64,000 bases of DNA from an uncultured virus (IMG/VR IMGVR_UViG_3300009285_001861) (IMGVR_UViG_3300009285_001861); one strand, 5' to 3'. Shown: positions 1,169-61,165, counted from the first letter of the stretch. Program-made: numbers and translations. Notes: generated from the sequence alone by a model not told the origin.

Positions 1169-1816
1169 ATGTCAAGAACATGGACCGACACTCAGCTAAT
1201 TCAGGCCGTAACCACGAAGTTTTCCATGTCAGAGGTGCTGAGGGAATTGGGGCTTTACCCCAATAGCAGTAATGCGAAGACTATCCAAACGCATATGGGG
1301 CGCTTAGGGTTAAAGTCCGAGCATTGGGCGGTACACTTCAAGAAATGGTCAGAGGAACAACTCACACGGGCCGTGGCTACCCAATTTACCATGGCCATGG
1401 TCTTAAGGGAATTGGGGTTGTCCCCTGTTGGGGGGAACTACAAGACCATTCGGCAACATATTCTCCGGTTGGGTTTGAGTACCACGCACTGGACAGGACA
1501 GGGACACTTGAAGGGGAAAACCCACTCGTGGTCAGTTAAGATGCCATTGTCAGAGTTATTGGTTGAGAATAGCACCTATGGGACCAACCACCTTAGTAAA
1601 CGTCTTGTCAAAGAGGGAGTACTAAGATATGAATGCTCTGACCCGGACTGCCTTTTGACCACATGGAAGGGGAAGCCAATTTCCTTGCACCTAGACCACA
1701 AGAATGGGGTCCCCACGGACCATCGCCTGGAAAACCTGAGGTTACTGTGCCCCAACTGCCACTCACAGACTCCCACGTACTGTGGAAAAAATATAGGTGG
1801 CCCTACCGGGACTTGA
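1169..1816 (+). CDS. Free-standing HNH homing endonuclease
   Basis: LHLDHKNG...NLRLLCPNCHSQT HNH motif; two N-terminal repeats; 3' end overlaps tRNA-Leu antisense. Confidence 0.9.
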   Translation: MSRTWTDTQLIQAVTTKFSMSEVLRELGLYPNSSNAKTIQTHMGRLGLKSEHWAVHFKKWSEEQLTRAVATQFTMAMVLRELGLSPVGGNYKTIRQHILRLGLSTTHWTGQGHLKGKTHSWSVKMPLSELLVENSTYGTNHLSKRLVKEGVLRYECSDPDCLLTTWKGKPISLHLDHKNGVPTDHRLENLRLLCPNCHSQTPTYCGKNIGGPTGT

Positions 1817-1880
1817 ACCCGGATGCCTCGCGGCCTCCCGTTTTAAGTGGGAGAATGTCTGCCAATTCCATCACAGGGCC
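1798..1880 (-). tRNA. tRNA-Leu(TAA)
   Basis: Cloverleaf with long variable arm; loop CTTAAAA; A31-C39 mismatch. Confidence 0.9.
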
Positions 1881-1884
1881 GTAG

Positions 1885-1966
1885 TGGGTTATAACGGACT
1901 TGAACCGATACCCCTTGCGGGACACCATTTTGAATGGTGCGTGGCTGCCAATTTCACCAATAACCC
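1885..1966 (-). tRNA. tRNA-Leu(CAA)
   Basis: CACCA-TTCAAAA-TGGTG anticodon arm; long variable arm. Confidence 0.9.
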
Positions 1967-2008
1967 AGGAAATCATTGTTGTTTTAGTCTTCACCTACTT
2001 CCAGCTGT

Positions 2009-2093
2009 TGGTGCGAGAAAGGGGACTTGAACCCCTACACCTTGCGGTACCGGATCCTAAGTCCGGCGCGTCTGCCAATTCCGCCATCCTCGC
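2009..2093 (-). tRNA. tRNA-Leu(TAG)
   Basis: CCGGA-CTTAGGA-TCCGG; encoded CCA. Confidence 0.95.
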
Positions 2094-2112
2094 GAAAACA
2101 TTAAAGAAACAG

Positions 2113-2194
2113 TGCATGAGACAGGGATCGAACCTGCACGTCTTTCGACATAGGACTCTCATTCCTACGTGGCTACCAGTTACACCACTCATGC
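2113..2194 (-). tRNA. tRNA-Leu(GAG)
   Basis: TAGGA-ATGAGAG-TCCTA; long variable arm. Confidence 0.88.
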
Positions 2195-2198
2195 AGAG

Positions 2199-2286
2199 TG
2201 GCCGGGAAGGGCATCGAACCCTCACGGGAAGTTACTCCCACTGGCTTCTGAGACCAGCATGTCTTCCAAAATTCCATCACCCGGCC
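2199..2286 (-). tRNA. tRNA-Leu(CAG)
   Basis: CTGGT-CTCAGAA-GCCAG; long variable arm. Confidence 0.9.
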
Positions 2287-2318
2287 AAGCTACCTACTTG
2301 CTGCCGGGGACCTCAGAC

Positions 2319-2408
2319 CTACGCACGAGTGCATAAATCCACCCCGGCACAGCTAAGCAATAGCTCTAGCTTCAGGCTCGGAATGGAGTTGGTTGCACGA
2401 TCGAACAT
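2319..2408 (-). CDS. Putative Leu-sensing leader peptide MFDRATNSIPSLKLELLLSCAGVDLCTRA
   Basis: 29-codon ORF between promoter and Leu tRNAs; Leu codons CTG, CTA, CTA, TTG, CTT, TTA. Confidence 0.75.
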   Translation of the reverse strand: MFDRATNSIPSLKLELLLSCAGVDLCTRA

Positions 2409-2420
2409 GGTGTCCTGTGT

Positions 2421-2449
2421 AGTCTAAAGACGAATTACCGAGGTGTCAA
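2421..2449 (-). promoter_or_regulatory. sigma70-type promoter of Leu tRNA operon
   Basis: TTGACA-N17-TAGACT. Confidence 0.8.
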
Positions 2450-9743: not shown

Positions 9744-11309
9744 CCTATGACATCCAAACCAGCCGAATAATGGCCGTTTCCACCCCTCACGTCCACTAGC
9801 TTCAGGAATAGACCACCCAGGTCCTTCTGCAAAGATGCCATCAGGTTCTCGTAGGTGATGTTCCACTCATACCACATCAAGTACACAGGCTTCCCATGCT
9901 GGAAGATAACGGTCCCATTACCCTCATTCTCAGGACCCTCCCACCGAAGGTCCCGTGAGGTGATCCCCTTTTCGGACCACAGCTTGGCCCGAGCCTCTTT
10001 GTCTGTGGGGCCCCCATCAATTTCTGCCATCATGTCCCGGTAGGCTAGGTATCCACTAGGCATCACTTGCCCTCGATCTGGTCCGCTACCTTGGTGAACA
10101 TGGCAGCCAGCTCTCGAAGATCAGAGGCATGGACTCCACAATAGTCCCCACCCCTTCCCCCAATCACCATTTCAGTTGAGCCAAGCCCAAAAAACCCGCT
10201 CTCTATGTATATCTCGTGACCTATGGCCCCTTTACGGTCTCGGACCCCGATGGTGGTTCCACTGTTGCAGACGTGGATGTAGTAGGAGCCCAAAATCTTG
10301 TCCTTTTTGTTCATGGTCTTACGATACCTTGGGGTTCTTGAGTTGTTCTCGCTTCAGGTCCAAGAAACGGCGGATCGTAGACATAGTTTGTGGGGGCACC
10401 GTGGCGGCCACCCTAATCAGGGCTTCCTGATATGTGTCATCCTGTAAGCCTTCCATAGTGGCCAGGACATTGACCAGCAGGGCAGAGTAACCCGCACGGG
10501 TCTGATAGTCAGTCTCACTGCCCCTCGCGGACGTTGGGGCGGCCAACAGGAACTCAAGTCTCTCCCTGACCACACCTTGGAGGACCTTTTGACTGGCTGG
10601 GGTGAGCACATCATGGGTAGTCCTCCCCCCCAAGGTGTTCTGGATGCCCTGTAGGACACATTGCTGAATGGAGTAGACCCCACTTGCAATACCAGACTGA
10701 AGGACGGGCAGAAAATCAGTGAGGCGGTCTATTGGGTCTACAATAGAGGCTGCCCGGCGTACTGCTGACCAGATTAAAGTCTCCCGTCCTCGTAGGCGTT
10801 CCAGATCCTCACATACCCACAGGGCTTGACGCAATAGGCCCTGATAGAGTTGCATCCTGGCATAGGGGTCAAATACTTGAGTGGTCTCTGCAATGTACAG
10901 CAGGTGCCTTAACCAAGTATCTTCTGGCTCATCCTCGAAGTCCTTCGAGAGTTCCCGGATCACATATTGAAGGGCTTCCTGGTTCGCGGGATCCGCATCA
11001 AGAATTTCGTCCAGGGCATCGCATTTAGCCTCCGTAGAAGCCTTGGGCTTGTTCAAGACGCCTCCGTAGAAGCCTTGGGCTTGTTCAAGACGGTCCATGG
11101 CATCAGAGAAACTCCCGGTAGCCCTGCTTGTCCAGGACCTTGCAGAGCCGTTGGATCTTGATCTCTGCCCTCTTGTAGTCAGCTTGGACCGCCTTGAGAG
11201 CATCCGGGCTAAGGCTGGCGCCATAGTAGATAAGGGCAGCCTTCAAGTCATCCGTCTTCTTGGCCTGCTTGGAAAACTCAGGGTGGTTCGCGATGTTCTT
11301 GTACCGCAT
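9740..11309 (-). other. Four hypothetical genes (9740-10066, 10063-10314, 10319-11098, ~11103-11309)
   Basis: Tiled ORFs. Confidence 0.6.
11028..11091. repeat. Perfect 32-bp tandem duplication
   Basis: GCCTCCGTAGAAGCCTTGGGCTTGTTCAAGAC x2. Confidence 0.95.
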
Positions 11310-11391
11310 AGAGGACGTTACACCATGAGGGGGCAGCAGAAGGTGGAAAACGAGAACGGGCAGCGGAACCTTTTCGGATCCTGCCCCCAAA

Positions 11392-11465
11392 TGGAGTGAC
11401 TGGCTGGTTACGATCCAGCACTTCCGGGTTCACAGCCCAGCGGGCAACCACTACCCCACAGCCAC
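11392..11465 (-). tRNA. tRNA-His(GTG)
   Basis: CTGGG-CTGTGAA-CCCGG; encoded CCA; no encoded G-1. Confidence 0.85.
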
Positions 11466-11500
11466 AAACAAAGAGCCAGGGATTAACCGCCGGGTGCTCG

Positions 11501-11548
11501 TTACCGGCGGCAGGTCCTATGGGGTCGATGGGGGTTCGTGGTCTTCAT
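11501..11548 (-). CDS. Putative His-sensing internal leader MKTTNPHRPHRTCRR
   Basis: Short ORF directly 5' of tRNA-His; stop inside hairpin CCGCCGG/CCGGCGG. Confidence 0.55.
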   Translation of the reverse strand: MKTTNPHRPHRTCRR

Positions 11549-11568
11549 GGTCGTCTTTCAGAAACACT

Positions 11569-11642
11569 TGGAGAATCCTGTGGAAGTCGAATCCACTTAG
11601 AGAGCTTTGCAGGCTCCTCCCTGGCCGTTCGGGCAAGGATTC
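11569..11642 (-). tRNA. tRNA-Cys(GCA)
   Basis: GAGC-CTGCAAA-GCTC; U73; CCA. Confidence 0.88.
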
Positions 11643-11644
11643 AT

Positions 11645-11729
11645 TGGTGGAGTGTCCGGAAATCGAAGCCGGGCTGGCAGTGCCTCCCGGTTTACAGCCG
11701 GGACCCTTTCCACTCAGGTGCAACACTCC
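11645..11729 (-). tRNA. tRNA-Tyr(GTA)
   Basis: CCCGG-CTGTAAA-CCGGG; variable arm; CCA. Confidence 0.88.
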
Positions 11730-11763
11730 GTATATCGCGAAACTCGGCCGTCAGCCGACGCGA

Positions 11764-11796
11764 TCAATAACAGTGGTGATGCAGATGCTGGTTCAT
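11764..11796 (-). CDS. Putative His/Cys/Tyr-sensing leader peptide MNQHLHHHCY
   Basis: ATG AAC CAG CAT CTG CAT CAC CAC TGT TAT TGA upstream of Tyr-Cys-His tRNAs. Confidence 0.8.
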   Translation of the reverse strand: MNQHLHHHCY

Positions 11797-12103
11797 TTGA
11801 GGCTTGTACCTATACTACGCTTCTAGAGGACGATTAGCCAGGGAAATCGACAGGGGGCTAACGATTGGTCATGGGACCGCTGTAGGAGCACACTGCCCTA
11901 CCTGAGCCCCACCATGCTCTATGAGCTCACGTCGAGCCCAGCAACTTGTCTGGGTGGGCTCACATACCCGCACTTCGGCCCGTTGCAAGACTGTGACGAA
12001 ACACCATAAATGTCTGACCCTCGGTGGTGGCCTATGTGAGACATGATGGTTGTTGGGAAGAGAGGCAAGGAAGAGAAGGAAGCCTGTAAGGAACGTCATA
12101 CCA

Positions 12104-12730
12104 CTACTGTACCAAGAGGTCACACACATTGAAGGGAACCTCATAGTCTGCCATGTGGAAAGGCTTCCTGTTGGCAGGGGGTACGGGATCCAGGACATGC
12201 AGGATACCTCGGCGCCGATTTTGATTGGCATGCCAGACAAACCAAGCATAGTCACTGCTATCTCGATTCGTTCCTGCGAATTGGGGTCGGTCGGGTAGGA
12301 CATACATATCCGGGGCATTGTGGCCCATCAAGTGAAACCGTCCTTTGGTGCTCACGAATGACAGGCGCAGCAACATGACTACGATATTGGCAAGACCCAG
12401 AGATCGTTCAACGAATTGGGGAGCCTTGGAAAACGGTGGGTTCCCAATGACCACATCGAAGGTGCCAAGTTGGGTTTCCAAGAAGTCACCCATGTAGACA
12501 TTGGCCACTAGGGGGCGAAGGGTGGCCTCATGGGTCGGGTCGATCTCCACCGCGGACCAGTGCACATCACTTCGGTTGACAGCTCGAATGATGGCCCCTT
12601 GCCCGGCTGAAGGCTCTAGCCAATTCCCCGGTGGCAGGGAGAGGGCACCTGTTAGGGATTGGACACACCAGGGAGGTGTTGGATAGGTGTCTAGAGAGGT
12701 ACGGTCCCCACCCCTAACAGTCGCCGTCAT
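12104..12730 (-). CDS. Phage DNA amino-methyltransferase
   Basis: YPTP, LEPSAGQG (SAM binding), GNPPF catalytic motif. Confidence 0.88.
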   Translation of the reverse strand: MTATVRGGDRTSLDTYPTPPWCVQSLTGALSLPPGNWLEPSAGQGAIIRAVNRSDVHWSAVEIDPTHEATLRPLVANVYMGDFLETQLGTFDVVIGNPPFSKAPQFVERSLGLANIVVMLLRLSFVSTKGRFHLMGHNAPDMYVLPDRPQFAGTNRDSSDYAWFVWHANQNRRRGILHVLDPVPPANRKPFHMADYEVPFNVCDLLVQ

Positions 12731-12955
12731 CTATCCGTCCTATTGTCATAGTCCTCTAGGTGTTTTCTGGCAATGGGTAGGGTCTCGATGATTTCCCTCT
12801 CTCGGGACTCCTTGGAGGGCTGTTCCCAGGGGATGCCATTCGCTCGGAACATTCGTTCAAAGATGACGTGGTCCGCGTCCACCCACACTTCAGCCATCAT
12901 CCGAACCCGTAGGTCGAACCACTCCTCAGGGGTATAGCCGTTTGCTCCTGACATG

Positions 12956-13267
12956 TCACCAGCCCCGCCTCCGTTTGGATTCTCGGGACCTGATTGTCTC
13001 GCCGGGTTTGACCTTCTGGATGAACTTCCTGGCAGCCAAGAACTTCTCATTGGCCAGGAGTCCCTCAACGCTATCTAGGTTGAGAGCTTCGTTCCTCAGG
13101 TCCCGCTGGGGGAACAGGGCATGAATTTGTTTGTGGCACTCCTTACATATCAGCTCAATCAGGTCCTTGTCCTCACGACGTGTCTTGAGGTGGTGCCTCT
13201 CCAGGACCAGTTGAGGACCCACTCGGTCACAGAGGGGGCAGGGTGTTGTGGGTTGGGTTGAGTTCAT
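12956..13267 (-). CDS. Small HNH-like protein
   Basis: CPLC...HHL...CKECHKQIH. Confidence 0.7.
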   Translation of the reverse strand: MNSTQPTTPCPLCDRVGPQLVLERHHLKTRREDKDLIELICKECHKQIHALFPQRDLRNEALNLDSVEGLLANEKFLAARKFIQKVKPGETIRSRESKRRRGW

Positions 13268-13273
13268 TCTAGG

Positions 13274-13654
13274 TTACTCCCAATCCACATCTTCCACGTC
13301 TTCCTCATTGCTGAATCCAAAGGCCCCGAACTGTCGCTCCCGGGCCTTCCAAGACCAGTCTGGATCCCTTCCACGTCGTGCACTGATCACCATGCATGTC
13401 AAGCAGGCATATCCCTGCCATTCGGGCATACACCCGTAGTCCGCAACAATGAGCACTTTTGTGGTGGGCTTCCCACAGGTGCAAGTAACTTTGCCTTGAT
13501 CCTTACGCCAACAGGCAGACATCTCATCCTGGGTGGGGAATATCTTGGGCCGAGCAAAATCGCTGGTCCCGTCATACTCAAACCAGCCAACCAGCTCCCG
13601 TTCCGGATCTGGCTGGTCCGTATCCAAATAGACGCGTCCGCTTGAATGGCTCAT
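13274..13654 (-). CDS. Hypothetical protein
   Basis: Start moved to MSHSSG because the longer ORF overlaps tRNA-Ala. Confidence 0.55.
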   Translation of the reverse strand: MSHSSGRVYLDTDQPDPERELVGWFEYDGTSDFARPKIFPTQDEMSACWRKDQGKVTCTCGKPTTKVLIVADYGCMPEWQGYACLTCMVISARRGRDPDWSWKARERQFGAFGFSNEEDVEDVDWE

Positions 13655-13684
13655 GGTACCTATGGATTCTGGATCATTTGAGGG

Positions 13685-13757
13685 TGGAGCCAGCGAAATT
13701 CGAATTCGCAACTTCCAGCTTGCAAGGCTAGCACTCTGCCAATTGAGTTATGGCCCC
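13685..13757 (-). tRNA. tRNA-Ala(TGC)
   Basis: G3-U70 pair; loop CTTGCAA. Confidence 0.92.
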
Positions 13758-13780
13758 AAACGAAACGAGAAACGAAACAG

Positions 13781-13855
13781 TCGGGGAGACTGGATTCGAA
13801 CCAGCGACCCTCCGGTTCCAAGCCGGATACTCTAACCAGACTGAGCTACTCCCCG
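13781..13855 (-). tRNA. tRNA-Pro(TGG)
   Basis: CGGGGAG acceptor; loop CTTGGAA. Confidence 0.93.
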
Positions 13856-13905
13856 TGAGTCAAACCTGTTTTCAGTCGCATCCACTGGTTGAGGGTGCAA
13901 CGACG

Positions 13906-14001
13906 TTAGGCTGCGGGCGGGGCGGCTGGACCCACGCACGCCACCACGCAAGCGGCTGTCGCCGCTGGTGCTGTGTTGGTGCTGTGGGTCGAGAGGTTCA
14001 T
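13906..14001 (-). CDS. Putative Ala/Pro-sensing leader MNLSTHSTNTAPAATAACVVACVGPAAPPAA
   Basis: 10 Ala + 4 Pro in 31 codons, between promoter and Pro-Ala tRNAs. Confidence 0.78.
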   Translation of the reverse strand: MNLSTHSTNTAPAATAACVVACVGPAAPPAA

Positions 14002-14010
14002 GGTCCGTTC

Positions 14011-14038
14011 AGTATAGTGACAGGTTATAGGATGTCAA
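14011..14038 (-). promoter_or_regulatory. sigma70-type promoter of Pro-Ala operon
   Basis: TTGACA-N16-TATACT. Confidence 0.78.
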
Positions 14039-14845
14039 GTGGACTCCCCCCTACCTTACCCCCTCTGAGCCCCTCCGTGGAAGAAATCGTCCTTGTCGAA
14101 CGTTCTTTGACAGGGCGGGTGTCTGGGTCTGCCTGCCCCAACTCGATCCTCTCCACCCGAAGATCCCGGGGCTCCACGCCTTCCTGGAGTCCTACGGCCA
14201 ACCGAAGATCCGGGAGGTCCTGTACCGCCTCACCGTGGGTGTGGTAGTTAGCCGGGGTCCTTGTTCGCGGGTCCACGATGGGTGCCCAGATGTCCAGGCC
14301 TTTGCAGTTACAGACGGTGTGCCCACAACGGTGTTCCTGGTGGCCCATGAATCGCCGGATCTGGTACATTATCTTCCCCATCCAATTACACCTTGGCTAA
14401 GATCGTTGGCTAGTTCCAGCCTGGATTCAGGAGACCGGAACCTAGAAGCGTAACGGCGGGATTCCTTGACCGCACTCATGGTGGTCCACCACTCCTGGCC
14501 TGTTTCCACGCACCGGAAACCAAACCGACGGGCGAACACGTCTTCTAGAGGCTCAATTCGGCAACCATCGTGGTTGGTATCCTCATAGGCGGACACCTGT
14601 TCCAGGATCGTATCTAGCATGTCGCTCACATCGGAGTAGGTAGGGTTCCCGGAGCCCGGCTGCCTGTCCTGAACGGACTCGATGACGGGCTCATAGATAC
14701 CGGCCCGGATTTCCAAAGTACGGATGTTGCCATCTCGGCTGAGGGTGAGTTTGGCTGGACCCCCTTCCCGTCCCCTCCCAGGCTCCACATTGGTGATGGC
14801 CCATCCCACCGTAAGGGATGCTAGTGTCTCATGGAAGGTCTTCAT
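14025..14845 (-). other. Two hypothetical genes (14025-14381, 14369-14845)
   Basis: Tiled ORFs. Confidence 0.55.
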
Positions 14846-15002
14846 TAGTTTTCCTTACACGGATGCCGGAATGTCCTACATGCCTCAGCATTGAGAGACT
14901 CGGATACCTTGGCCGGGGTAACCCCTACTACAACGCCCGCAATGGAGTTCACGTTGTAGAAGGGTCCATGCTCTACTTCTACCTGCCGCCACACGACCTT
15001 TT

Positions 15003-15527
15003 TCATCCGAGTCTCCTCAATGCTCCACAGATGACCCTACCCCTGCGTTCAACCAGTTGGAACACCTGTTCGACTTCGGGCATGTAGGAGGCAGTTTTGC
15101 GGTTCTCTTGCCAGCCATCCCGGGTAGGTTTGCCAACTCCAGACATGTCCCCACAATGGACCCAGATGTAAACGGCCCCTCCAGGCTTCACGGCATTGGC
15201 TGCTCGACGCAAAACATCCAGTCGCTCTTCCAGAGTGGGTATGACGTTCAGGACATTGGCGATAGTGGCGGTATCGGCCCCCGCTGTTCTTCCGTGGCTA
15301 TCATCAAGGATTGCCCGAAGGACAGCCCTGTTGTGATCTTCACTTCGATTGCCGGGGTCCCAGACGTAGTTGGTGACCCCGTGTTCGGCCAGATACTCGG
15401 TGGCAATGTCGTACTTGCCCCCGCCGATATCGGCATTCACGTCACCGGGCTTCCAGACACCATGCTCCATAAGGTAGCGGTGCAGCTGGGGGCGGATTGG
15501 GCGGGTAGTCCTAGCAGAGTATGTCAT
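15003..15527 (-). CDS. Class I SAM-dependent methyltransferase
   Basis: DIGGGKYD, DP, ANVLNVI motifs; start MTYSAR overlaps upstream stop. Confidence 0.8.
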   Translation of the reverse strand: MTYSARTTRPIRPQLHRYLMEHGVWKPGDVNADIGGGKYDIATEYLAEHGVTNYVWDPGNRSEDHNRAVLRAILDDSHGRTAGADTATIANVLNVIPTLEERLDVLRRAANAVKPGGAVYIWVHCGDMSGVGKPTRDGWQENRKTASYMPEVEQVFQLVERRGRVICGALRRLG

Positions 15528-16121
15528 TTTCGTAGGTCCCTGTAATGCTCGGTAGCCCAATGAAAAGGGGCCCCTTCCAGGGCATACCTCATCATGTCTG
15601 ACATCTCTTCCTGGCGCTTGAACGCGCACCAATGACATGAGCCAGAAGACATGCCAATCAGGTTCTCTACGATGACCCACAGTGCAGGTTTCCCATCAAT
15701 CGTTGGGTGCTCCTTGTGGCCTGCCTCACAGTAGGACAGCCCATCCTTGTTGAGCGCCAGTATATCGCAGGACCCCACGATGATGTCCCCATACCCAGCC
15801 TCACGGCACCTATGCCTCAATTCGTTTGAGAGTATGGTGAACGCTAGGGATTGGCTCACGATACGATCCTTGGTTCACCGATAGGAACTGTTTCATCCGT
15901 GAAGATACGAGCACCCAGGAACAGAAACTCATCTAGGGTGATGCGTGACGTGAAACTCCAGATGTGTGGGTCCCCATAGAGGCGGAACCAATCTGTTGGG
16001 TTAACAAAAATCGTCATCCCTCCCCGGGGGTAGAAATGATCGATTATCTGGGCTAATTTGTGCGCGGTCAGAGGTTCGGCTAGGGGTCCTGGATCCCCGA
16101 GCTGCCTGTAGTTGGGTTCAA

Positions 16122-16694
16122 TCATGCTATGACCCCCGTAGGACAGGGACTGATGATCTGGTTTCCAAACACCTTGACTCCGGCATCTGCAAGTCGACGC
16201 CCCCATGCCCATTCATAGCCAATTCGTTTGGTATCGCAGAACAGCCCCAGGTCCTCAATAGTTCGGGTTATGGCCGCAAACTCCTCATAGCGGGGGTGAT
16301 CCTTGGCGAGGAAGAGTTCCTTACGGTGAAGGATTGGCTTGTTGGTGTACTTGGAGTAGTCTCGCTCTTTGACCGTTCCTGCCTTCAGGTCCACCGTGTA
16401 GGCATGGTTGATGGCCGGGAAGGCATCCTCGAAAAACGTAGGGTAGCACAGCAAAGAGACCACAGGCTTCCGCTGTGAAAATTTCACGATGTCAATGACC
16501 CTCTCCTGGGAGGCCGGGAGTTGGCGGTCAACAAACCCCATTGCTTGGTCCACAATGTCCCCAAGAGGTCTCCCCTCTTGGGCTGGCCACAAGGCTGAGT
16601 TGTGTAAGTACACGGACTCCCCTACCCGCTTGCCAATGGGGATGGCTTTGATGGTGGCCTTCCACACAGAGTCAGAGGGGACCCGCCTAGTCAT
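16122..16694 (-). CDS. Protein resembling the non-catalytic repeat domain of DNA phosphorothioation-associated putative methyltransferases
   Basis: GKRVGESVYLH, VSLLCYPTFFEDAFP, DYS...PILHRKELF motifs (recognised from memory). Confidence 0.6.
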   Translation of the reverse strand: MTRRVPSDSVWKATIKAIPIGKRVGESVYLHNSALWPAQEGRPLGDIVDQAMGFVDRQLPASQERVIDIVKFSQRKPVVSLLCYPTFFEDAFPAINHAYTVDLKAGTVKERDYSKYTNKPILHRKELFLAKDHPRYEEFAAITRTIEDLGLFCDTKRIGYEWAWGRRLADAGVKVFGNQIISPCPTGVIA

Positions 16695-19693
16695 GGTCGC
16701 TCTCTTTGGGCTGTTCGTAGCCTACCGCCAGCAGTAACTGGTTGGTGGACTCAATGCAGGCGTCACAGGTGCTGGACACCACATCCAGGGCGGCATCCTT
16801 GGACTCGTGGGTGGAAGCTTCTTCCCATGCTCTAATGGCCTCATGGTGTACCTTGGTGTCATCTCGATACCGGAGGACACGCAACTCAATGAGTCTGAGG
16901 CGCATGTTCTCGTCCTGAAGCCTCTCGTTCTCTTGGGCAACATCCTTCAGGTTCTCGTAGTTCAGTTCGAGGACGTGAGCATCAAAAGCCCAGGGGTGGC
17001 GGTCACACTTCCGGGGGTGGGCACCACTGCCACAATGACAGGGGACATCCTTGGCTCCAATGGAGCTCATGTATGCCTGTAATCCAAGGAGCTTGTTCAG
17101 GCTCTCCATTGAGGGGGACGCCTTCAACCCCCGTTGGTATGCCTCATGGAGGGCATCTTTGATGTCTTCCTCGTAGTGCTCTGGTTTCTCAACCAAGATG
17201 TCTCGGGCTTCCTGGAGGGCCCAGTCTTCTCGGTTGGCATATATGTATCGGTCAGTCATCGTAGAACCAGGGCCCCCAGTCCTCTTCGGGCTGTGGTTCG
17301 GGTTGCTTCGTGGTCATGGTTTCCTCGCCTTAATCCGGTCCGCAATTGCATGGGCGGCGACTTCTTTGGCTAGGTTGATTAGGGCAGCTTCCATTGTCGA
17401 GTGGGTTTTGTTCTCACTACAGGCTAGGGCATACTCTGTTGCAATCTCGGCACAGGCCTCTCGTTCCCTGAGACCTTGTGAGCGTATGGCAATGGCGAGA
17501 TTACTGGCCCGTTCTTTCGGGTCGCCGATGTCGGCAATGGCGTTTGCCACCTCGTCGATTAGATCACTCATTGGAGTCTTCCCAAACCTGCTCATAGGGG
17601 GCGAGGGCCTGTTTGCATTTCTGACAGGTAACTTCGCGGTTGTGGCTCAGGGTATAGCCATCCCGACGGTCTGGGTTCATTTCCGAGTGCTTACCACAGG
17701 CAGTGATATAGTGCCCAGTAATGTGATTGGCGGATACTACCGCATGGCTCTTATAGGTATGTCTCCGGCGGCTCCATTGAGTGTTGGTAATCCCACCGAT
17801 GCTGATGGTCAGAAGATGTTTGCATGAGATGGGGCACCATGGGGTTCTGCTGGGATCCGAGTCCACAAATTGGTACTGTGGTTTCTTGGTTCCCTTTGAC
17901 TTGGGGGCACCACTCACCTCAAGGTCCTCACCGGATAGTTCCTTACGAATATCCTCTGCCCCAATCCTACGATCCGCGGTATGGGTGGCTTTTTTGATCC
18001 CATGCCTCTCATGCTGTTTTTCCCGCTGGGACATACAGGAGCCCCAAGAGCTGCCTTTTCTGGCACTGGGTAGGGAGTTGGCCATACTCCCGGTCTTTTT
18101 TCGACGGGCTGCTGTGTCCGTAGCAAACTTGGCACTCATCGTCCCCCCAGCCTATCCCAGAGTCCATCTATGGCCCTCTGGAGTAGGCCCCGTTCCCTAG
18201 TGGCCTCTGCCAGTTGGGTAACCGCCACATCCCGTTCCTTCTCGGCTTTGATGGCAGCCTTCGTGAGAAATTCGGAGTTGGCAACCAGTCTTTTGATGGC
18301 TTCCATGGGAGGGTCTCCATGCTCCAAGAGCTCGGCAACTATTGCCTCACACTCTACCGGGGTGAGGGTGGCGGGGACATTATGGCGGGATAGGACGACC
18401 CGAGGCCTCGCTCGCTCCCATTCGAGAACTGCTATTGCGGCATTGCGGTAATTGCGCGCCATAGAAGGATCCTCTTGGACAAGATCCTCCCACTCAGCGT
18501 CAATTTCTGCTATGCTGTCATGCGCCCCCGTCTGGCACCAATAGCCCCTATAGGCCATCTTCGATGCCTCCATGATCTCTGGGGTACACTTCTGGGCGAG
18601 CTGGGCCCGTTCACGGAGGATGAGTTGGGCAACCCGTGGGGTAGTCTCCCAGCAATGGAACACCTCATTGCGATCTACGTGTAAACAGTCACCTGAGATA
18701 TAGTCATTGATTCGACGTATCCATGACTCCCGGGTCCCCCAAGCAGCTCCAATATTGGCCAGCCAATCGGCAAGGCTCTCAATGGTATCCTCCTGTGGTG
18801 GCTGAGAAACGTAGTTGTGCTTCCCGCCGGGCTCCCCGTCATCCATTCCCCCACTCATTTGATTCCGTCCATTTGATTGGGTAGCTCTTCCATTGGGATG
18901 CCTAGAGATCGGGCCAGGACCACAAATGCACATCCCCATTCGTGGTTTCCCTCTGTGTCAAGGCAGAAGGTACACTGGTAGCTGCCTCCGTCCTGTGAGA
19001 ACTCAAAAGGTGATTCCTTGCAGAGGGCACGCGCAGCCTTCTCGATTCCCTGGAGCCTCTCGGTCTCATCGAAGGACAAGGCACGAGCGGCCTGTTCGAT
19101 TTGCTGTAACCGGTCCAGTTCATTGAGGGCGGCACATATGGTCCTGCCATTGGCGTCCATCTGTTCCATGCTGGGGATTCCACTTGAACGGCTGCCTCCG
19201 TTTTCATCCCCGTAGAGTTCCGCAACAAGTACCGACCCAATGTAGATGGAGGGCGGTTTACCGCGCTCCTCCCCATCGGTGCGGCCATCATCATACGCCG
19301 CCTTCCCTGGGGTTCTGGCATCATTGAGGGCACTCAATTCCTCAAGGGTCATTCAGGGTCCTGCGCGAATGCCTGCCACCAAGCCCAGTGACCTGACACA
19401 ACTCTTAGCAGACACCAAGTGGTGGCTACAAACGAAGTGTATAGGATCACCGAAGTCCACCAGGGGGCGCTACCTGTGGTAATCCCAGCCGCAGCAATCA
19501 GGACAATACTCGTGAGTCCAAGGAGGATGCTCAGGAATATATGAGCCGCGTCCCGTTGGTCTTCTGTCCAGGGCTTGGGGAGCTTTGCCTTCTTGGCCTC
19601 AAGGGCGGTCAGGGCCGCTTGGAGCCTTTGGTTTTCGGCCTCAAGGTTTGGTTTTCGGTAGGGGTAGCCTACAGCTTGTTGTTGAAGCATCAT
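16687..19693 (-). other. Array of ~6 hypothetical genes (16687-17259, 17314-17595, ~17564-18033, ~18136-18858, 18855-19352, 19349-19693 membrane protein)
   Basis: Tiled, mostly coupled ORFs. Confidence 0.55.
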
Positions 19694-40519: not shown

Positions 40520-40523
40520 AGAC

Positions 40524-48108: not shown

Positions 48109-48918
48109 CTATACCCGTACATGGCGATCATTTCGCCTCCCCACACGTCTAGATTTGATTCCCGGTCTTACCTGGGAGGAGGGGGCCAGTCGCGTCACAT
48201 ATCGAAGCTGATTCTTGTTCTCGGAGACAAACTGAAACGCATCTGCATAGTGCTCCATTTCCTCGTCTTGTCGGAGTTCCTCGATGGCCCGACGAATCCT
48301 GTGTCTAACGAAACCCTGGGAGACGTTCAGCCCATGGATGGCATTCAACTGCCGGGCTACCTCTGTCTGGCAGGTTGTCTCATACAATAGAGCCAGAATC
48401 CACCCGTCTATTGGGTCCTTGAAAAATCCCCCGAGCTTTTCCTTGTCCTTCAGAGAAAGTTTGGGGACCTGTATGGCGTACTCAAGTCGTTCAAGTGCCC
48501 TAAAGAGTCGGTAATGGATTGAGGGTTGGGAGATGCCGAAGTATTCGGCCATGGCCGCTTGCTTGACCGGCTGGAAGAAGTACATGTCAATCATCTCCGC
48601 CTCATCCTGAGGAATGAGCTTCAGAGCTTTCTTGACCTTCTGCCACAGTTCCCGGTCCCCCGTATTGGCCGGTAGGTAACCGGCTTGGGACATGAGGGCT
48701 CGAATGATGGGGTTTCCAGGGATCCCGAGGAACTCCCCCCAATCCTCCCATTGTCCCTTGTATGCCTCCTCTGGTTTGATTGGCATATCCTTTAGGGCAC
48801 CGGAACGGACAAGACCCTGATAGGTGTTTCGATGGGATAGCTTGACGGATAGGACAATCCGTTTGGCCTTAGAGTAAGAGATGAACTTCTTTTTTGGCAC
48901 AGGGGATGTTACCCTCAT
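48109..48918 (-). CDS. DNA-binding regulator with two sigma70 region-4-like HTHs and an N-terminal integrase-repeat-like unit
   Basis: QAAMAEYFGISQPSIHYRLFRALERL; second VSQGFVRHR; PIKPEEAYKGQWEDWGEFLG. Confidence 0.65.
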   Translation of the reverse strand: MRVTSPVPKKKFISYSKAKRIVLSVKLSHRNTYQGLVRSGALKDMPIKPEEAYKGQWEDWGEFLGIPGNPIIRALMSQAGYLPANTGDRELWQKVKKALKLIPQDEAEMIDMYFFQPVKQAAMAEYFGISQPSIHYRLFRALERLEYAIQVPKLSLKDKEKLGGFFKDPIDGWILALLYETTCQTEVARQLNAIHGLNVSQGFVRHRIRRAIEELRQDEEMEHYADAFQFVSENKNQLRYVTRLAPSSQVRPGIKSRRVGRRNDRHVRV

Positions 48919-48921
48919 TTG

Positions 48922-48992
48922 AGCGGCGTGCGAAACTCGAATTCGCTTCTCCGGGTTGGAAGCCCGGGGCCCAGCCTATAGACCAACGCCGC
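48922..48992 (-). tRNA. tRNA-Gly(TCC)
   Basis: CCGGG-CTTCCAA-CCCGG; U73. Confidence 0.88.
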
Positions 48993-49004
48993 AAGAAAAC
49001 AGAG

Positions 49005-49076
49005 AGCGGGAGAGGGAGCTCGAATCCCCGACCTGTGCGATGGCGACGCACCGCTCTACCACTGAGCTACTCCCGC
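49005..49076 (-). tRNA. tRNA-Gly(GCC)
   Basis: GTGCG-TCGCCAT-CGCAC (C33); U73. Confidence 0.88.
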
Positions 49077-49138
49077 ATATTGGTACGCGCGCTCCGCGCT
49101 GCGGTACCTTCGGGATGTTGTCGTTCTGTGGTTTTCAT
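49067..49138 (-). CDS. Putative internal leader MKTTERQHPEGTAARSARTNMRE before Gly tRNAs
   Basis: Single GGT codon in a hairpin arm pairing with the tRNA 5' end; stop inside the tRNA. Confidence 0.45.
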   Translation of the reverse strand: MKTTERQHPEGTAARSARTNMRE

Positions 49139-49156
49139 CGTTTCGTCTTTCGTTTG

Positions 49157-49231
49157 CGTGTACGACAGGGATCGAACCTGTGACCTTGGGCTTCGGAGGC
49201 CCCTGCTCTAATCCAACTGAGCTACGCACAC
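49157..49231 (-). tRNA. tRNA-Arg(CCG)
   Basis: GGGC-CTCCGAA-GCCC. Confidence 0.9.
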
Positions 49232-49233
49232 AT

Positions 49234-49309
49234 TGGCGCGTCTGAGAGGACTTGAACCTCTAACACCTGCATTCGTAGTGCAGTGCTCTATCCATTGAGC
49301 TACAGACGC
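49234..49309 (-). tRNA. tRNA-Arg(ACG)
   Basis: CTGCA-CTACGAA-TGCAG; CCA. Confidence 0.93.
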
Positions 49310-49341
49310 ATGTACAGCTGCGTTTGGGCCAACTACCTGTC

Positions 49342-49417
49342 TGGCATCCCTGGCTAGACTCGAACTAGCGTCCTGTCCTTAGGAGGAACCCGCTCTGTCC
49401 AGTTGAGCTACAGGGAC
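49342..49417 (-). tRNA. tRNA-Arg(CCT)
   Basis: Loop CTCCTAA; CCA. Confidence 0.88.
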
Positions 49418-49553: not shown

Positions 49554-49582
49554 AGCTTAGCTATTGCGTTCAGTGGTGTCAA
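49554..49582 (-). promoter_or_regulatory. sigma70-type promoter of Arg-Gly operon
   Basis: TTGACA-N17-TAAGCT. Confidence 0.72.
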
Positions 49583-58240: not shown

Positions 58241-58311
58241 CGTCCCTGGCCAGAATTGAACTGGCATCCGAAGAGTGAGGATCTTCGATCCGACCATTAG
58301 AAGACAGGGAC
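58241..58311 (-). tRNA. tRNA-Glu(CTC)
   Basis: GAAGA-TCCTCAC-TCTTC (C33). Confidence 0.85.
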
Positions 58312-58315
58312 CTAG

Positions 58316-58388
58316 CACCCCCAACGGAATTCGAATCCGTGTTACCACCGTGACAGGATGGCGTCCTAGACCACTGAACGATAGGGGT
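58316..58388 (-). tRNA. tRNA-Asp(GTC)
   Basis: CCATC-CTGTCAC-GGTGG; G73. Confidence 0.9.
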
Positions 58389-58403
58389 ATATCACCTTAA
58401 AGG

Positions 58404-58483
58404 TGGTGCCTGTGGGGGGATTTGAACCCCAAAACCTTTGCAGAGTGAAAATCTGCTGTCCTAACCAACTAGACGACACAGGC
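58404..58483 (-). tRNA. tRNA-Glu(TTC)
   Basis: GCAGA-TTTTCAC-TCTGC; CCA. Confidence 0.9.
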
Positions 58484-58589: not shown

Positions 58590-58617
58590 AGTATAGGGAG
58601 GAAAACGAAGCTGTCAA
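58590..58617 (-). promoter_or_regulatory. sigma70-type promoter of Glu-Asp-Glu operon
   Basis: TTGACA-N16-TATACT. Confidence 0.78.
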
Positions 58618-59352
58618 GGGGCTGTCAGGGGCCACAACACTGGGCTGTGGCGCAAGGCAATGTAATGCCAGTTCTCAAGCCAACTCCGGTGGATAGGGAT
58701 CCTCGACCGGGTCCAGCCATCCATCACGTACACCCAAGGTTGCCAAGAATGCCTGCCCTTGGGGAACACCGCCAACATCATCCCGTTCTTGGCACAGTGG
58801 GAGTCTTCCAGGGAATCTTTGACGACCTGTCTGGCCCTCTTGGATGTCCTGACTCGCTTGAAGGTCGGAGATGAGTCCCCGCCGGGATCGAACATGATGA
58901 GGTACATGCTAGGGCTCGATATTGACGGAGGCGTCTAGATGGGTTGGGGAGGGGATTGTGGGTCTCCGCTGATTGCATGTGGCTAGTCCCATCGCAAGGG
59001 GCAACACAATTCCTCCAATGAAGGCCACCCAAATACCAACTTTGGTTAGTCTCTTCACACGCTGCCCCAAGGCATCGTTGCTCCGAATGGCCTCTTTGAG
59101 AGTTCCTGATAGGTCCAGGAGGCACGCCTGAGTGTCCTGTAGGACCTGTTTCGTTTCTGTTGCGATTTGTACCTGTGCAGCCAACTTCCCAACCTCTCCA
59201 GTCGATAGATTGCCTGCTGCTTGTTTTAGGATCTCCTCAGGGGAAAGCAGCTTGCCCGATGTGGGGTTGGTGAACTGATCAATAATAGAACGTCCCATTT
59301 GGAATCCGGGGTGTGGGTCGGACCACTAGCTTGGCTATTAACCCGACAGGGT

Positions 59353-60438
59353 ATGTTCCCACTATACACCCCTGAAGCGTTCCAGGCAGCAAAATCTTTC
59401 ACCTTACTACCCCTGAAGTGTCAACAGTGCCCCACCACCATCTATCGGACCAAGAAGGCTCTTAAGTACGCAATCCTGAAAGGCAAGGAGAAATTCTTTT
59501 GCCCCAAGTGCCTTCCCCAATCCCAGGTGTCATCCATCGAGGTAGCCTGCCTGACTTGCGGGGTCAAGTTCTTGAAGCGGGCATCCCAATGTAAGAAAAC
59601 CCCCAATCACTTTTGTAGTCGGTCCTGTGCAGTGAAGACCAACAATGTCAAGACCCCCAAGAGGAAGGTTGAGGGCTCCTGTCGAACCTGTCAGAAGCCT
59701 ACACATACCAAAGACCGGTATTGCTCGGATTCCTGTAAGGAGGTGGCCCGTCAAATCTGGGAGGCGGAACGGGAGCTAGAGTGGCAGAAGCCCCCCGTCA
59801 AGGTCAAGGGACCCCGTAAGCCTAGGGCGAGTAGTGGATACAAGAAGATTGGAAGGTCCCCAGCACAAAAGCGGGAGGACGGGAAGGCAGGGGTTGTGGC
59901 CTGGAGGCAACGCACCAAGCTCAAAGCCATTGAGTACAAGGGAGGATGCTGCCAAACATGCGGGTACCGGAAATGTGTATGGGCTCTCTCTTTCCACCAT
60001 GTGGACCCCTCACAGAAGGACTTTGGCATTGGTGGTCGGAATCTTAAGTCCTGGGCCCGTATTCAGGTGGAGTTGGACAAGTGTGTCCTAATTTGTAGTA
60101 ACTGTCATGCAGAAGTCCATGATGCCCTGGACAGCACCCCTGATGCTAAGGCCCATTGGAGGAAACGCCTCAAGATTAAGGCCATTGAGTACAAAGGAGG
60201 TCATTGTTGCCTTTGCGGGTACCACAACTGCAACAGGGCATTGAGTTTTCACCATTTGGACCCGTCCCAAAAGGACTTCAACATCTCCAGGGTTAGTAGA
60301 ACCTGGGAAAGCATACAACCGGAGTTGGATAAGTGTGTCCTACTCTGCATGAACTGCCATGGGGAAGTTCATGCTGGCACTGCTATTTTAGACTCGATGG
60401 TAGACCGTACTGGAATCGAACCAGTTTCTACGGGTTAA
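59353..60438 (+). CDS. Free-standing homing endonuclease with two tandem HNH domains
   Basis: Two copies of KAIEYKGG.C..CGY...LSFHH.DPSQKDF...ELDKCVL.C.NCH.EVH; N-terminal FCSRSC/YCSDSC zinc fingers. Confidence 0.9.
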   Translation: MFPLYTPEAFQAAKSFTLLPLKCQQCPTTIYRTKKALKYAILKGKEKFFCPKCLPQSQVSSIEVACLTCGVKFLKRASQCKKTPNHFCSRSCAVKTNNVKTPKRKVEGSCRTCQKPTHTKDRYCSDSCKEVARQIWEAERELEWQKPPVKVKGPRKPRASSGYKKIGRSPAQKREDGKAGVVAWRQRTKLKAIEYKGGCCQTCGYRKCVWALSFHHVDPSQKDFGIGGRNLKSWARIQVELDKCVLICSNCHAEVHDALDSTPDAKAHWRKRLKIKAIEYKGGHCCLCGYHNCNRALSFHHLDPSQKDFNISRVSRTWESIQPELDKCVLLCMNCHGEVHAGTAILDSMVDRTGIEPVSTG

Positions 60439-60472
60439 AAGCCACGCTGCCCAACCAATAGGCCAACGGTCC
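60398..60472 (-). tRNA. tRNA-Lys(TTT)
   Basis: Loop CTTTTAA; bulged anticodon stem; CCA. Confidence 0.82.
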
Positions 60473-60523
60473 TCAATTGGAGGCGTCGGCGGGTTTGAGT
60501 CGAAGTGAGAAGGAAAACGTCAT
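60473..60523 (-). CDS. Putative internal leader MTFSFSLRLKPADASN before tRNA-Lys(TTT)
   Basis: GAGGT RBS; AAA codon within CTCAA/TTGAG stem; stop abuts tRNA +1. Confidence 0.5.
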   Translation of the reverse strand: MTFSFSLRLKPADASN

Positions 60524-60534
60524 TTGGACCTCAG

Positions 60535-60608
60535 CTCCGTGGGCAGGGATCGCACCTGCTCAATAGGCAGTTTAACAAACTGCTGCCGTCCTATTTGGCT
60601 ACCACGGA
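60535..60608 (-). tRNA. tRNA-Asn(GTT)
   Basis: GCAGT-TTGTTAA-ACTGC; G73; atypical T loop TGCGATC. Confidence 0.85.
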
Positions 60609-60633
60609 AAACACGAATGCACGGCTGCCAACG

Positions 60634-60684
60634 CTAGGCGTTGGCGTTCCGATTCAGTGTTCCAGGTTTCAAGAGGGCGTACAT
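60634..60684 (-). CDS. Putative Asn/Lys-sensing leader MYALLKPGTLNRNANA
   Basis: AAA, AAT, AAC, AAC; stop at apex of GCCAACGC/GCGTTGGC hairpin. Confidence 0.72.
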   Translation of the reverse strand: MYALLKPGTLNRNANA

Positions 60685-60917
60685 TGGCTTGGTCTCTGTG
60701 GGAGTCTATAGGGGATCTAGTGGGCTGCGATTAGGCTCCCCAGGTTGGTCAAGCTTACGCCTTCGTTGCCGCTCTGCGATCCGGTTCGTCATTCTTGCAG
60801 ACGAAAGCTCACGCAGCGGAGCAAGGAATTACCAAACTGGGGAACGATTAGAAGGTTGACTCGGAGATGCAGGATTACGTAGGGAGGTACATGAACGACA
60901 ACAACCCGAGCCAACCT

Positions 60918-60996
60918 TGGTAACGGGAGCAGGATTTGAACCTGCGATCTCCAGCGTATGAAGCTGGCGGGTTGAACCAGACTACCCCATCCCGCA
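60918..60996 (-). tRNA. tRNA-Met(CAT), initiator-like
   Basis: U1xU72 mismatch, purine11-pyrimidine24, CCAGC-TTCATAC-GCTGG; lacks the three G-C pairs. Confidence 0.82.
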
Positions 60997-61137
60997 ATAA
61001 GTCCGGGGATTGTGGCCCTGGTTGGACCCGCAACCCCGGTCCCAACGATGACTGCCCATCGTTGGACCCCTGCCCGACCTGTAGCCTCCTGTGAAGCTAC
61101 CTTGAGTAATCAGTTCAAGTGCCGGACCGATCAATTC

Positions 61138-61165
61138 ATCTTACGCACCAGGAGAGACTTGTCGA
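61138..61165 (-). promoter_or_regulatory. Possible sigma70-type promoter of fMet-Asn-Lys operon
   Basis: TCGACA-N16-TAAGAT. Confidence 0.5.

Follow-up and report, generated by a model that had tools for sequence, protein, structure and literature searches.

The DNA analyzed here, referred to as the window, is a 64-kb stretch (bases 27366-91365) of the 485,040-bp genome of an uncultured phage (IMGVR_UViG_3300009285_001861). Its tRNA genes are arranged in clusters sorted by amino acid, and most of the short open reading frames (ORFs) associated with these clusters, referred to as leaders, are rich in codons read by the tRNAs encoded downstream. The interpretation that we favor, with a probability of about 0.55, is that these leader ORFs are sensed by the ribosome and gate the output of phage tRNAs by amino-acid group through control of read-through. 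Leader translation, ribosome stalling, the direction of control and the controlled step are parts of this model that we infer from the arrangement of the sequence.

The grouping by amino acid, which the original prediction had described, is pronounced: among 36 tRNA genes, 13 adjacent pairs carry the same amino acid, compared with a mean of 1.67 in shuffled orders, and none of 200,000 shuffles reaches 13. Mean identity is 62% between isoacceptors and 57% between tRNAs for different amino acids, and because these values are so close the isoacceptors are not recent duplicates; sorting by recent tandem duplication is therefore unsupported.

Codon content of the leader ORFs

All ten ORFs that the original prediction had placed at the clusters are present where it located them, and eight of the ten are enriched in cognate residues at P < 0.05, P being calculated for each ORF, here and in Table 1, by comparing cognate residues with the phage's own amino-acid usage. 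The idea that the cluster ORFs are enriched in their own codons is therefore upheld for eight clusters and fails for the Ile/Phe/Gln and Lys/Val/Met/Arg/Ile ORFs. Enrichment can also be local. In the Ile/Phe/Gln ORF it is found in a Gln tail, and in the Ser ORF (41407-41574; 10/54 Ser, P = 3e-3), which begins with GTG at 41574 and reads through a tRNA, it is found in the 17-residue tail past tRNA-Ser(gct).

An objective set of leaders was defined as the first ATG ORF upstream of each of the ten clusters, cut at the tRNA, with weak ones included. In this set 61 of 202 residues are cognate, against a permutation mean of 23.0, and 61 is reached by 4 of the 3,628,800 possible reassignments of leaders to clusters, so that the predicted matching holds up against shuffled leader and tRNA assignments. 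The signal resides in one frame, the ATG frame, with 61 cognate residues; the counts are 29 and 22 when the leaders are read in the two remaining sense frames and 23, 33 and 24 when they are read antisense. Mononucleotide shuffles of the leaders give a mean of 33.7 cognate residues, and none of 20,000 reaches 61. At the level of codons, a triplet that the tRNA can read under strict wobble rules occurs in the leader of its own operon for 28 of 31 tRNAs (permutation mean 14.4; 40 of 3,628,800 permutations reach 28), and in eight units this is the case for every tRNA (27/27).

It could be supposed that the codon runs function as untranslated RNA that binds cognate anticodons in the manner of a T-box or a sponge. 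Triplets complementary to the downstream anticodons are indeed enriched, as this explanation would require. We consider it very improbable, because the enrichment is restricted to the ATG-to-stop frame and because Rfam yields no T-box match, either in the window at the gathering score or in two clusters at E ≤ 1.

A comparison of the window with 164 other loci (347 tRNAs) covered ATG ORFs of 6-60 codons that lie no more than 200 nt ahead of a tRNA, for a total of 2.37 Mb, 381 tRNAs and 536 ORFs. The window contributes seven of the 11 top-scoring ORFs, and these seven correspond to six distinct leaders. When ORFs from 245 sources were scored against the first downstream tRNA, P < 0.01 was obtained for 4 of 24 window ORFs and for 4 of 520 others. 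Codon-matched leaders are thus rarely found at these other phage tRNA loci.

Several observations weigh against the interpretation given above; those on codon content are described here and those on leader structure in the next section. As delimited in the original prediction, the Ile/Phe/Gln ORF (25930-26349, P = 0.74) and the Lys/Val/Met/Arg/Ile ORF (35104-35517, P = 0.70) show no enrichment, and both are frames of 137-139 codons that pass through tRNA genes. The case for the Lys/Val/Arg/Ile unit is weak, no leader matches tRNA-Met, and no in-frame start lies in the spacer that contains the Ser-rich frame (41407-41463). The excess of synonymous-codon diversity in the leaders over that predicted from the codon usage of the genome is marginal (37 vs 33.3 expected; 4,533 of 100,000 draws reach 37, P = 0.045).

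Antisense open frames of a length like that of the 137-139-codon frames also cross the tRNA clusters. For this reason the length of the two frames was given no weight, and a long open frame through tRNA genes was rejected as a remarkable feature. These antisense frames, together with the two unenriched ORFs, are what would be expected if the codon matching were a matter of chance or a compositional artefact of short ORFs beside tRNA genes. This explanation is rejected by the permutation, frame, shuffle and outside-locus controls, and the probability that remains for it is negligible.

Promoters, hairpins and the proposed mode of control

Seven clusters (Leu, Pro/Ala, Ile/Phe/Gln, Thr, Lys/Val/Arg/Ile, Arg/Gly and Glu/Asp) are headed by a TTGACA-N16/17-TAnAcT-like promoter, and in all seven the leader starts at the first ATG past the -10 element, at a distance of 9-21 nt, in agreement with the predicted position of seven leaders shortly past such promoters. 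If transcription starts ~7 nt past the -10 element, the 5′ untranslated regions would be ~2-14 nt long. The strict pattern TTGAC[AT]-N16-18-TA[TGC]A[CA][TA] has six copies on the two strands of the 485-kb genome, of which five are cluster heads; a relaxed pattern has 14 matches genome-wide, six of them at cluster heads. An independent consensus scan of positions 11000-28500 ranks the Thr and Pro/Ala heads at the top (11/12 consensus matches), and promoter-like sites as a whole are not enriched in that region (12 vs 9.5 ± 2.6 in shuffles). A second motif, GT[CA]GATTTC-~29 nt-GCGTA[AG][GT]AT, has three copies in the genome, located upstream of the Tyr/Cys/His, Lys and Met units, and may serve a different sigma factor as promoter or be the target of a regulator.

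The first 30 nt past the leader ATG contain less G (4.8 vs 7.5, P = 2e-5) and more C (10.9 vs 8.6, P = 5e-4) than the corresponding part of 308 long phage ORFs, and this G-poor, C-rich composition fits an unstructured start that does not depend on a Shine-Dalgarno sequence. ATGAAY opens seven leaders or spacer ORFs. Phage genes in general make weak use of Shine-Dalgarno sequences, a GGAG-like word being present at -20 to -4 in 95 of 308, and C occupies position -1 in 46% of long phage ORFs.

In 11 of 12 leaders the fold is more stable than in dinucleotide shuffles of the same sequence (z from -3.25 to +0.34, mean ~-1.8), and the minimum-energy and centroid folds contain one dominant terminal hairpin. 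Among the 11 ORFs that stop before a tRNA (nine leaders and two spacer ORFs), the stop codon lies no more than 6 nt from the loop of the 3′-most hairpin in nine, as compared with 2.7 expected (Poisson-binomial P = 7e-5), this 6-nt criterion having been set after inspection of the folds; in five it lies inside the loop. Other stop-like triplets of the same leaders lie within this distance in 5 of 34 cases. The leader ORF overlaps the 5′ arm of the hairpin, and the 3′ arm is untranslated and runs into the tRNA gene. Because the stop is at the hairpin tip, the cognate codons are located mostly in the 5′ arm. Pairing of the leader with the acceptor strand of the tRNA was rejected as a candidate: native leaders disrupt the acceptor-stem in 8 of 12, and the corresponding values are 49% for swapped pairs and 50% for shuffled leaders.

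These features suggest a model in which each sorted tRNA operon would be transcribed from its own strong host-type promoter and would begin with a short translated leader ORF that has nearly no 5′ untranslated region. The final leader codons, read by the downstream tRNAs, would constitute the 5′ arm of the hairpin, with the stop at its tip, and the untranslated 3′ arm would reach as far as the first tRNA. With an ample supply of the matching charged tRNAs, the ribosome would leave the leader fast and the hairpin would close; when they are scarce, the ribosome would dwell on the 5′ arm, the hairpin would be held open, and output of the downstream tRNAs would increase. Because dwelling on cognate codons would raise tRNA output, the product would feed back on its own sensor. 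We give somewhat less than an even chance to the full form of this model, in which the phage runs about ten amino-acid-specific feedback loops, the host ribosome gauges each charged tRNA family on a leaderless-like ORF, the phage tops up that family, and the effector is of a kind not yet described.

The frames might, alternatively, be translated without acting as gauges, for example to load ribosomes that protect the transcript or couple to it, with the codons supplied by the operon itself. The strong promoter, the use of the first ATG and the G-poor start region all fit efficient translation of this sort. Because phage tRNAs exist for nearly every amino acid, however, any codon would be supplied and an operon-specific composition would be unneeded; compositions such as 4 His in 9 residues are then unexplained, as is the concentration of cognate codons at the end of the ORF, within the hairpin arm. 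We therefore regard this alternative as decidedly unlikely.

For the step that is controlled, we lean away from processing and toward read-through, in which RNA polymerase would continue past a U-poor hairpin that acts as a non-canonical stop or pause site. In a processing scheme with the same sensor, the gated step would be maturation of the tRNA: the closed hairpin would bury the 20-30 nt 5′ of the first tRNA and hinder RNase P or RNase E, and a ribosome lingering on the 5′ arm would free the tRNA flank, so that the precursor is processed. A stop at the hairpin tip suits this scheme, as do the absence of a U tract after all 12 helices and a geometry like that of hairpin-melting translational attenuators. 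A gap of 0-6 nt between the 3′ arm of the last helix and the tRNA, seen in 15 of 16 leaders and spacers, also suits it; that this adjacency is weakly above chance, with 11.5 expected, is a point against it. The hairpin, moreover, touches the first tRNA only, yet the Leu leader contains TTA, TTG, CTA and CTT whereas the first Leu tRNA reads CTG, and tRNAs for the same amino acid follow one another at 2-5 nt without gates of their own. Control of maturation is accordingly judged unlikely. Read-through is favored because the leaders sample the codons of all tRNAs of a group and not those of the first only, and polarity is favored over processing of individual tRNAs because there is one gate per group, with mini-ORFs where the group changes. 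The effector would be of an undescribed kind, namely, an ORF ending at the tip of a U-poor hairpin that stands against the first tRNA.

The structural counterpoints to control of read-through by a sensing ribosome concern translation, folding and termination. Translation of the leaders is itself something that we infer from sequence, and no Shine-Dalgarno sequence precedes any leader. The 6-nt stop-to-loop criterion was chosen after the fact, and the weak adjacency of helix and tRNA also belongs here. A U tract (at least 5 U in the 9 nt past the last helix) is found in 0 of 12 leaders, a terminator scan gives no site in the interval from any leader to its tRNA, and the region is not enriched in terminator-like sites (22 vs 15.1 ± 3.8 in shuffles). 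Because such sites show no general excess, the missing terminators may reflect the style of termination rather than the absence of a stop. A mutually exclusive antiterminator fold is not present among the minimum-energy and centroid folds, suboptimal folds not having been enumerated. Furthermore, a stop at the tip would allow a fast ribosome to open the hairpin too, and discrimination would therefore need a timing element, of which none is seen. Finally, scans with proteins, profiles and nucleotide sequences found no close relative for analysis of conservation or covariation. Of the leader-peptide attenuation with the ribosome as sensor that had been proposed, then, the sensor half is supported by the codon match, the frame, the promoter-ATG spacing and the stop at the hairpin, whereas the classical effector, with its U tract, terminator and antiterminator, is not found.

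Relation to known systems and to other loci

Leader-peptide transcription attenuators include trpL, hisL, leuL, thrL, pheL and ilvL, of which those of thr and ilv are multivalent, and the leader of E. coli pheST. The leaders described here resemble the trpL/hisL class in having a short 5′ ORF, with start and stop, whose codons are cognate to what the operon supplies, and structured RNA downstream of this ORF, and they resemble the multivalent thr and ilv leaders in that one leader may serve several amino acids. They differ from the trpL/hisL class in that phage tRNA genes would be regulated, so that the sensed molecule is the product, in that U-tract terminators (0/12) and, among the minimum-energy and centroid folds, antiterminators are not found and only one hairpin is present, with the end of the ORF at its tip, and in having a predicted very short 5′ untranslated region, no Shine-Dalgarno sequence and no match to a curated Rfam leader family (window at the gathering score; two clusters at E ≤ 1). 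Because the intrinsic terminator was looked for and is missing, membership in this class is not established.

In translational attenuation of the ermC and cat type, a drug-dependent stall acts on a hairpin that hides the ribosome-binding site of a resistance gene. As in that type, the leader ORF overlaps the 5′ arm of the hairpin and the dwell of the ribosome would determine hairpin opening; here, however, the hairpin abuts a tRNA and not a ribosome-binding site, and the stall would depend on tRNA supply. T-box riboswitches are untranslated, rely on one specifier codon and regulate genes for synthetases and biosynthesis. The likeness to a T-box is that the status of tRNA would be sensed in a 5′ leader through codon-anticodon recognition, and the differences are the frame-specific signal and the lack of a T-box match in Rfam.

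Leader-peptide attenuation is a textbook mode of control of amino-acid biosynthesis. If the proposed reading is correct, the molecule sensed on tRNA genes is the molecule made, and the loop is closed directly. Large phages could then dose each tRNA family on demand instead of releasing all of them wholesale, and this top-up of tRNAs would be a built-in answer to a mismatch in codon usage or to host defences that deplete or cut tRNAs; the link to scarce or destroyed host tRNAs, for example through anticodon nucleases, that the original prediction had drawn is conjectural in the same way. The question bears on why phages carry tRNAs, whether for codon bias, for replacement of degraded host tRNAs or for escape from tRNA-targeting defences. 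With about ten amino-acid-specific units, this single genome is distinctive in its resolution; the sorted layout provides ten natural parallel test cases, each unit being shorter than 250 nt. Given the stop-at-loop design without a canonical terminator, the effector step may be one not yet described.

Passages on attenuators with leader peptides in amino-acid operons can be found in PMC1183508 and PMC3082878. Leaderless short ORFs encoding polycysteine are reported to act as cysteine-responsive attenuators in mycobacteria (bioRxiv 10.1101/834739). These ORFs are like the present leaders in being short, rich in one amino acid and devoid of a Shine-Dalgarno sequence, and in a location at or close to the 5′ end of the transcript, which is predicted for the leaders; they are unlike them in controlling bacterial cysteine-related protein genes, whereas tRNA genes follow here and transcription starts are deduced from promoter spacing. 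Full-text literature searches found no paper describing leader ORFs that control tRNA genes, and the words "leader" and "attenuat" are absent from the text of the general huge-phage paper (PMC7162821), supplements aside.

Two ORFs at other tRNA loci show a similar composition. On a 182-kb viral contig with a G+C content of 45% (L253:760-883, plus strand), TTGCCA-N16-TATAAT is followed after 2 nt by an ATG ORF and then directly by tRNA-Thr(tgt). Thr accounts for 10 of the first 40 residues of this ORF, with ACA or ACG as the codon in 8 instances. It could be an independent instance of the device proposed for the window; nothing comparable accompanies the remaining 16 tRNAs of the locus. On a viral contig with a G+C content of 64% (L261:6000-7263, plus strand), a 37-codon ORF with a Shine-Dalgarno sequence contains 9 Glu and 4 Asp and is followed by a hairpin upstream of tRNA-Glu(ttc), and two homologous Cys-rich small ORFs occur in neighboring tRNA spacers.

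Viral contigs scanned with one protein at a time, the RNA ligase or the sigma factor, gave no match. With tblastn of two proteins against a phage collection, identity above 60% was seen only in the same genome, and blastn in its distant mode gave, outside that genome, only tRNA-sized matches. Relatives of the RNA ligase in a protein database show 83, 65, 61 and 57% identity. The best identities in profile scans are 47-50% in metagenome contigs, at most 35% in viral contigs and at most 36% in genomes, and none of these shows codon-matched leaders. A scan of viral contigs for the promoter plus ATGAAC gave 119 loci, two of which have tRNAs, and the one inspected (L060) has its tRNAs upstream of the motif. 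Another 484-kb uncultured phage, LR756508.1, has 28 Rfam tRNA matches and no leader pattern. No RNA sequencing data are present among 13 run rows from 5 studies. Contigs of four sequencing runs show 155 differences from positions 11300-28000; none of 40 of these lies in a leader, the 40 being at 13818 (inside tRNA-Pro) and at 20545-23302. The run contigs also contain diverged copies of a TnpB-like stretch, with differences clustering at 20545-21197.

Gene set and individual operons

ARAGORN finds 34 tRNA genes in the window, every one on the minus strand. When introns are allowed it also finds tRNA-Ile(tat) (34712-34998, minus strand), with a 210-nt insert in the anticodon loop, and Rfam adds a tRNA at 60535-60608 with GUU (Asn) in its anticodon loop, bringing the number supported by these tools to 36. 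The insert of tRNA-Ile(tat) has a weak match to a group I intron (34784-34972, minus strand; 23.3 bits, E = 0.0015, below the Rfam gathering score). The tRNA at 60401-60472 is Lys(UUU) by Rfam alignment. The original prediction had counted 37 tRNA genes in minus-strand clusters; the strand and 36 genes are confirmed, and the thirty-seventh is a tRNA-like CAT sequence at ~35100-35229 (minus strand), recognized by eye from a 7-bp acceptor-stem, a normal T-arm and a shortened D-arm and called by neither ARAGORN nor Rfam (E ≤ 1). Rfam gives 33 tRNA matches genome-wide, 31 of them inside the window, and all 31 matches in the window at the gathering score are tRNAs. Outside the window, ARAGORN finds two further tRNAs: a suppressor tRNA with the anticodon tta, which reads TAA (genome 222464-222540, minus strand) and has no preceding leader ORF, and a second tRNA-Arg(cct) (genome 224217-224291). 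The G+C content of the window is 52-59%. Among the Pfam matches in the window are an RNA ligase, a sigma-70 family protein, an HNH endonuclease, an IS605 OrfB/TnpB-like protein, an NAD synthase, an ADP-ribosylglycohydrolase and a radical SAM enzyme, and the terminase families PF03237 and PF17289 have no match anywhere in the genome.

Table 1. Promoters, leader or spacer ORFs and tRNA genes of the operons, in window coordinates
Feature	Position	Strand	Basis and remarks
Leu operon, promoter TTGACA-N17-TAGACT	2421-2449	-	Genome-wide motif scans; ATG 12 nt past -10
Leu leader ORF, 29 codons, 6 Leu in 5 codon types	2319-2408	-	P = 0.037; stop 5 nt from last hairpin loop
Five tRNA-Leu (cag, gag, tag, caa, taa)	1796-2286	-	ARAGORN, Rfam
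Tyr/Cys/His operon, second promoter-like motif GTCGATTTC-N-GCGTAGTAT	11802-11851	-	Motif scan
His/Cys/Tyr leader ORF, 10 codons, MNQHLHHHCY	11764-11796	-	6/9 cognate, P = 5e-6
Internal mini-ORF ahead of tRNA-His, 15 codons, 2 His	11501-11548	-	ORF scan
tRNA-Tyr, tRNA-Cys, tRNA-His	11392-11729	-	ARAGORN
Pro/Ala operon, promoter TTGACA-N16-TATACT	14011-14038	-	Motif scans; 11/12 consensus
Ala/Pro leader ORF, 31 codons	13906-14001	-	14/30, P = 2.5e-5; stop within last hairpin loop
tRNA-Pro(tgg), tRNA-Ala(tgc)	13682-13855	-	ARAGORN, Rfam
Ile/Phe/Gln operon, promoter TTGACA-N17-TATACA	26368-26396	-	Strict motif scan
Ile/Phe/Gln head ORF, 3/24 Ile, enters tRNA-Ile without stop	26274-26349	-	P = 0.09, weak
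Internal Gln ORF, begins 4 nt past tRNA-Phe, ends QPRQQPQQQQQ	25930-26073	-	8/46, P = 2.4e-4; stop 3 nt from last hairpin loop
tRNA-Ile(gat), tRNA-Phe(gaa), tRNA-Gln(ctg), tRNA-Gln(ttg)	25754-26273	-	ARAGORN, Rfam
Thr operon, promoter TTGACA-N17-TATACT	27829-27857	-	Motif scans; 11/12 consensus
Thr leader ORF MRFFTTTRTRTAGLTRKG, 18 codons, 6/17 Thr (ACC, ACG, ACA)	27751-27807	-	P = 7.6e-4; fold z = -2.98
Three tRNA-Thr (tgt, cgt, ggt)	27496-27723	-	ARAGORN, Rfam
Lys/Val/Arg/Ile operon, second-motif copy	35574-35623	-	Motif scan
Lys/Val/Arg/Ile operon, promoter TTGACA-N17-CATACT	35532-35560	-	Relaxed motif scan
Lys operon head ORF, 2/20 Lys, enters tRNA-Lys	35454-35517	-	P = 0.24, weak
tRNA-Lys(ctt), tRNA-Val(tac), possible CAT tRNA, tRNA-Arg(tct), tRNA-Ile(tat) with insert	34712-35453	-	ARAGORN; CAT by eye
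Ser-rich frame, 7/17 Ser, five Ser codon types, in tRNA-Ser(gct)/tRNA-Ser(cga) spacer	41407-41463	-	P = 7e-5; stop is hairpin loop
Four tRNA-Ser in two pairs, separated by 239-codon endonuclease-like ORF	40340-41551	-	ARAGORN, Pfam
Arg/Gly operon, promoter TTGACA-N17-TAAGCT	49554-49582	-	Relaxed motif scan
Arg/Gly leader ORF, 36 codons	49424-49534	-	13/35, P = 8e-4
tRNA-Arg(cct, acg, ccg), tRNA-Gly(gcc, tcc)	48921-49417	-	ARAGORN, Rfam
Glu/Asp operon, promoter TTGACA-N16-TATACT	58590-58617	-	Motif scans
Glu/Asp leader ORF MNSYTTSERERESDSERT, 18 codons	58515-58571	-	5/17, P = 0.03; stop within hairpin loop; fold z = -2.5
tRNA-Glu(ttc), tRNA-Asp(gtc), tRNA-Glu(ctc)	58241-58483	-	ARAGORN, Rfam
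Second-motif copy upstream of tRNA-Met	61128-61177	-	Motif scan
Asn/Lys leader ORF, 16 codons, 3 Asn and 1 Lys (AAA)	60634-60684	-	P = 0.03; stop within hairpin loop
tRNA-Met(cat), tRNA-Asn(gtt), tRNA-Lys(ttt)	60398-60996	-	ARAGORN, Rfam

In the Leu unit, the leader codons CTG, CTA, CTA, TTG, CTT and TTA serve the tRNAs with anticodons cag, tag, caa, gag and taa, so that all five have a readable codon. The Arg/Gly leader likewise covers all five tRNAs of its operon, and AGA is absent from it. The Gln run of the internal ORF at 25930-26073 ends directly ahead of the two tRNA-Gln genes. Within clusters, spacers of at least 50 nt fall where the amino-acid group changes, and six of the seven hold an ATG mini-ORF, which begins 0-21 nt past the preceding tRNA. 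The spacers before tRNA-His (11466-11568) and tRNA-Gly(gcc) (49077-49155), both on the minus strand, share the module GAAAGACGA...ATGAARACCAC, and both mini-ORFs start with MKTT. Because these spacers share a module, internal leaders may have spread by duplication.

A sigma-70 family gene with region 4 domains (48109-48918, minus strand) begins 3 nt past tRNA-Gly(tcc), and transcription from the host-type promoter of the Arg/Gly tRNA operon probably extends into it. The RNA ligase gene (23899-25056, minus strand) is located ~700 nt downstream of the Gln tRNAs. Homologues of this ligase in other phage contigs often adjoin tRNA genes, 18 of 79 metagenome loci holding tRNAs, and a position beside tRNA genes would fit a role in tRNA repair. 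An IS605 OrfB/TnpB-like gene (19781-21235, plus strand) lies on the strand opposite to the tRNAs. The HNH endonuclease ORF (1169-1816, plus strand) shares sequence with the Leu cluster at the 3′ end of the latter, on the opposite strand, and an endonuclease-I-like ORF (40524-41243, minus strand) stands between the two pairs of tRNA-Ser genes; each has the look of a homing-endonuclease insertion.

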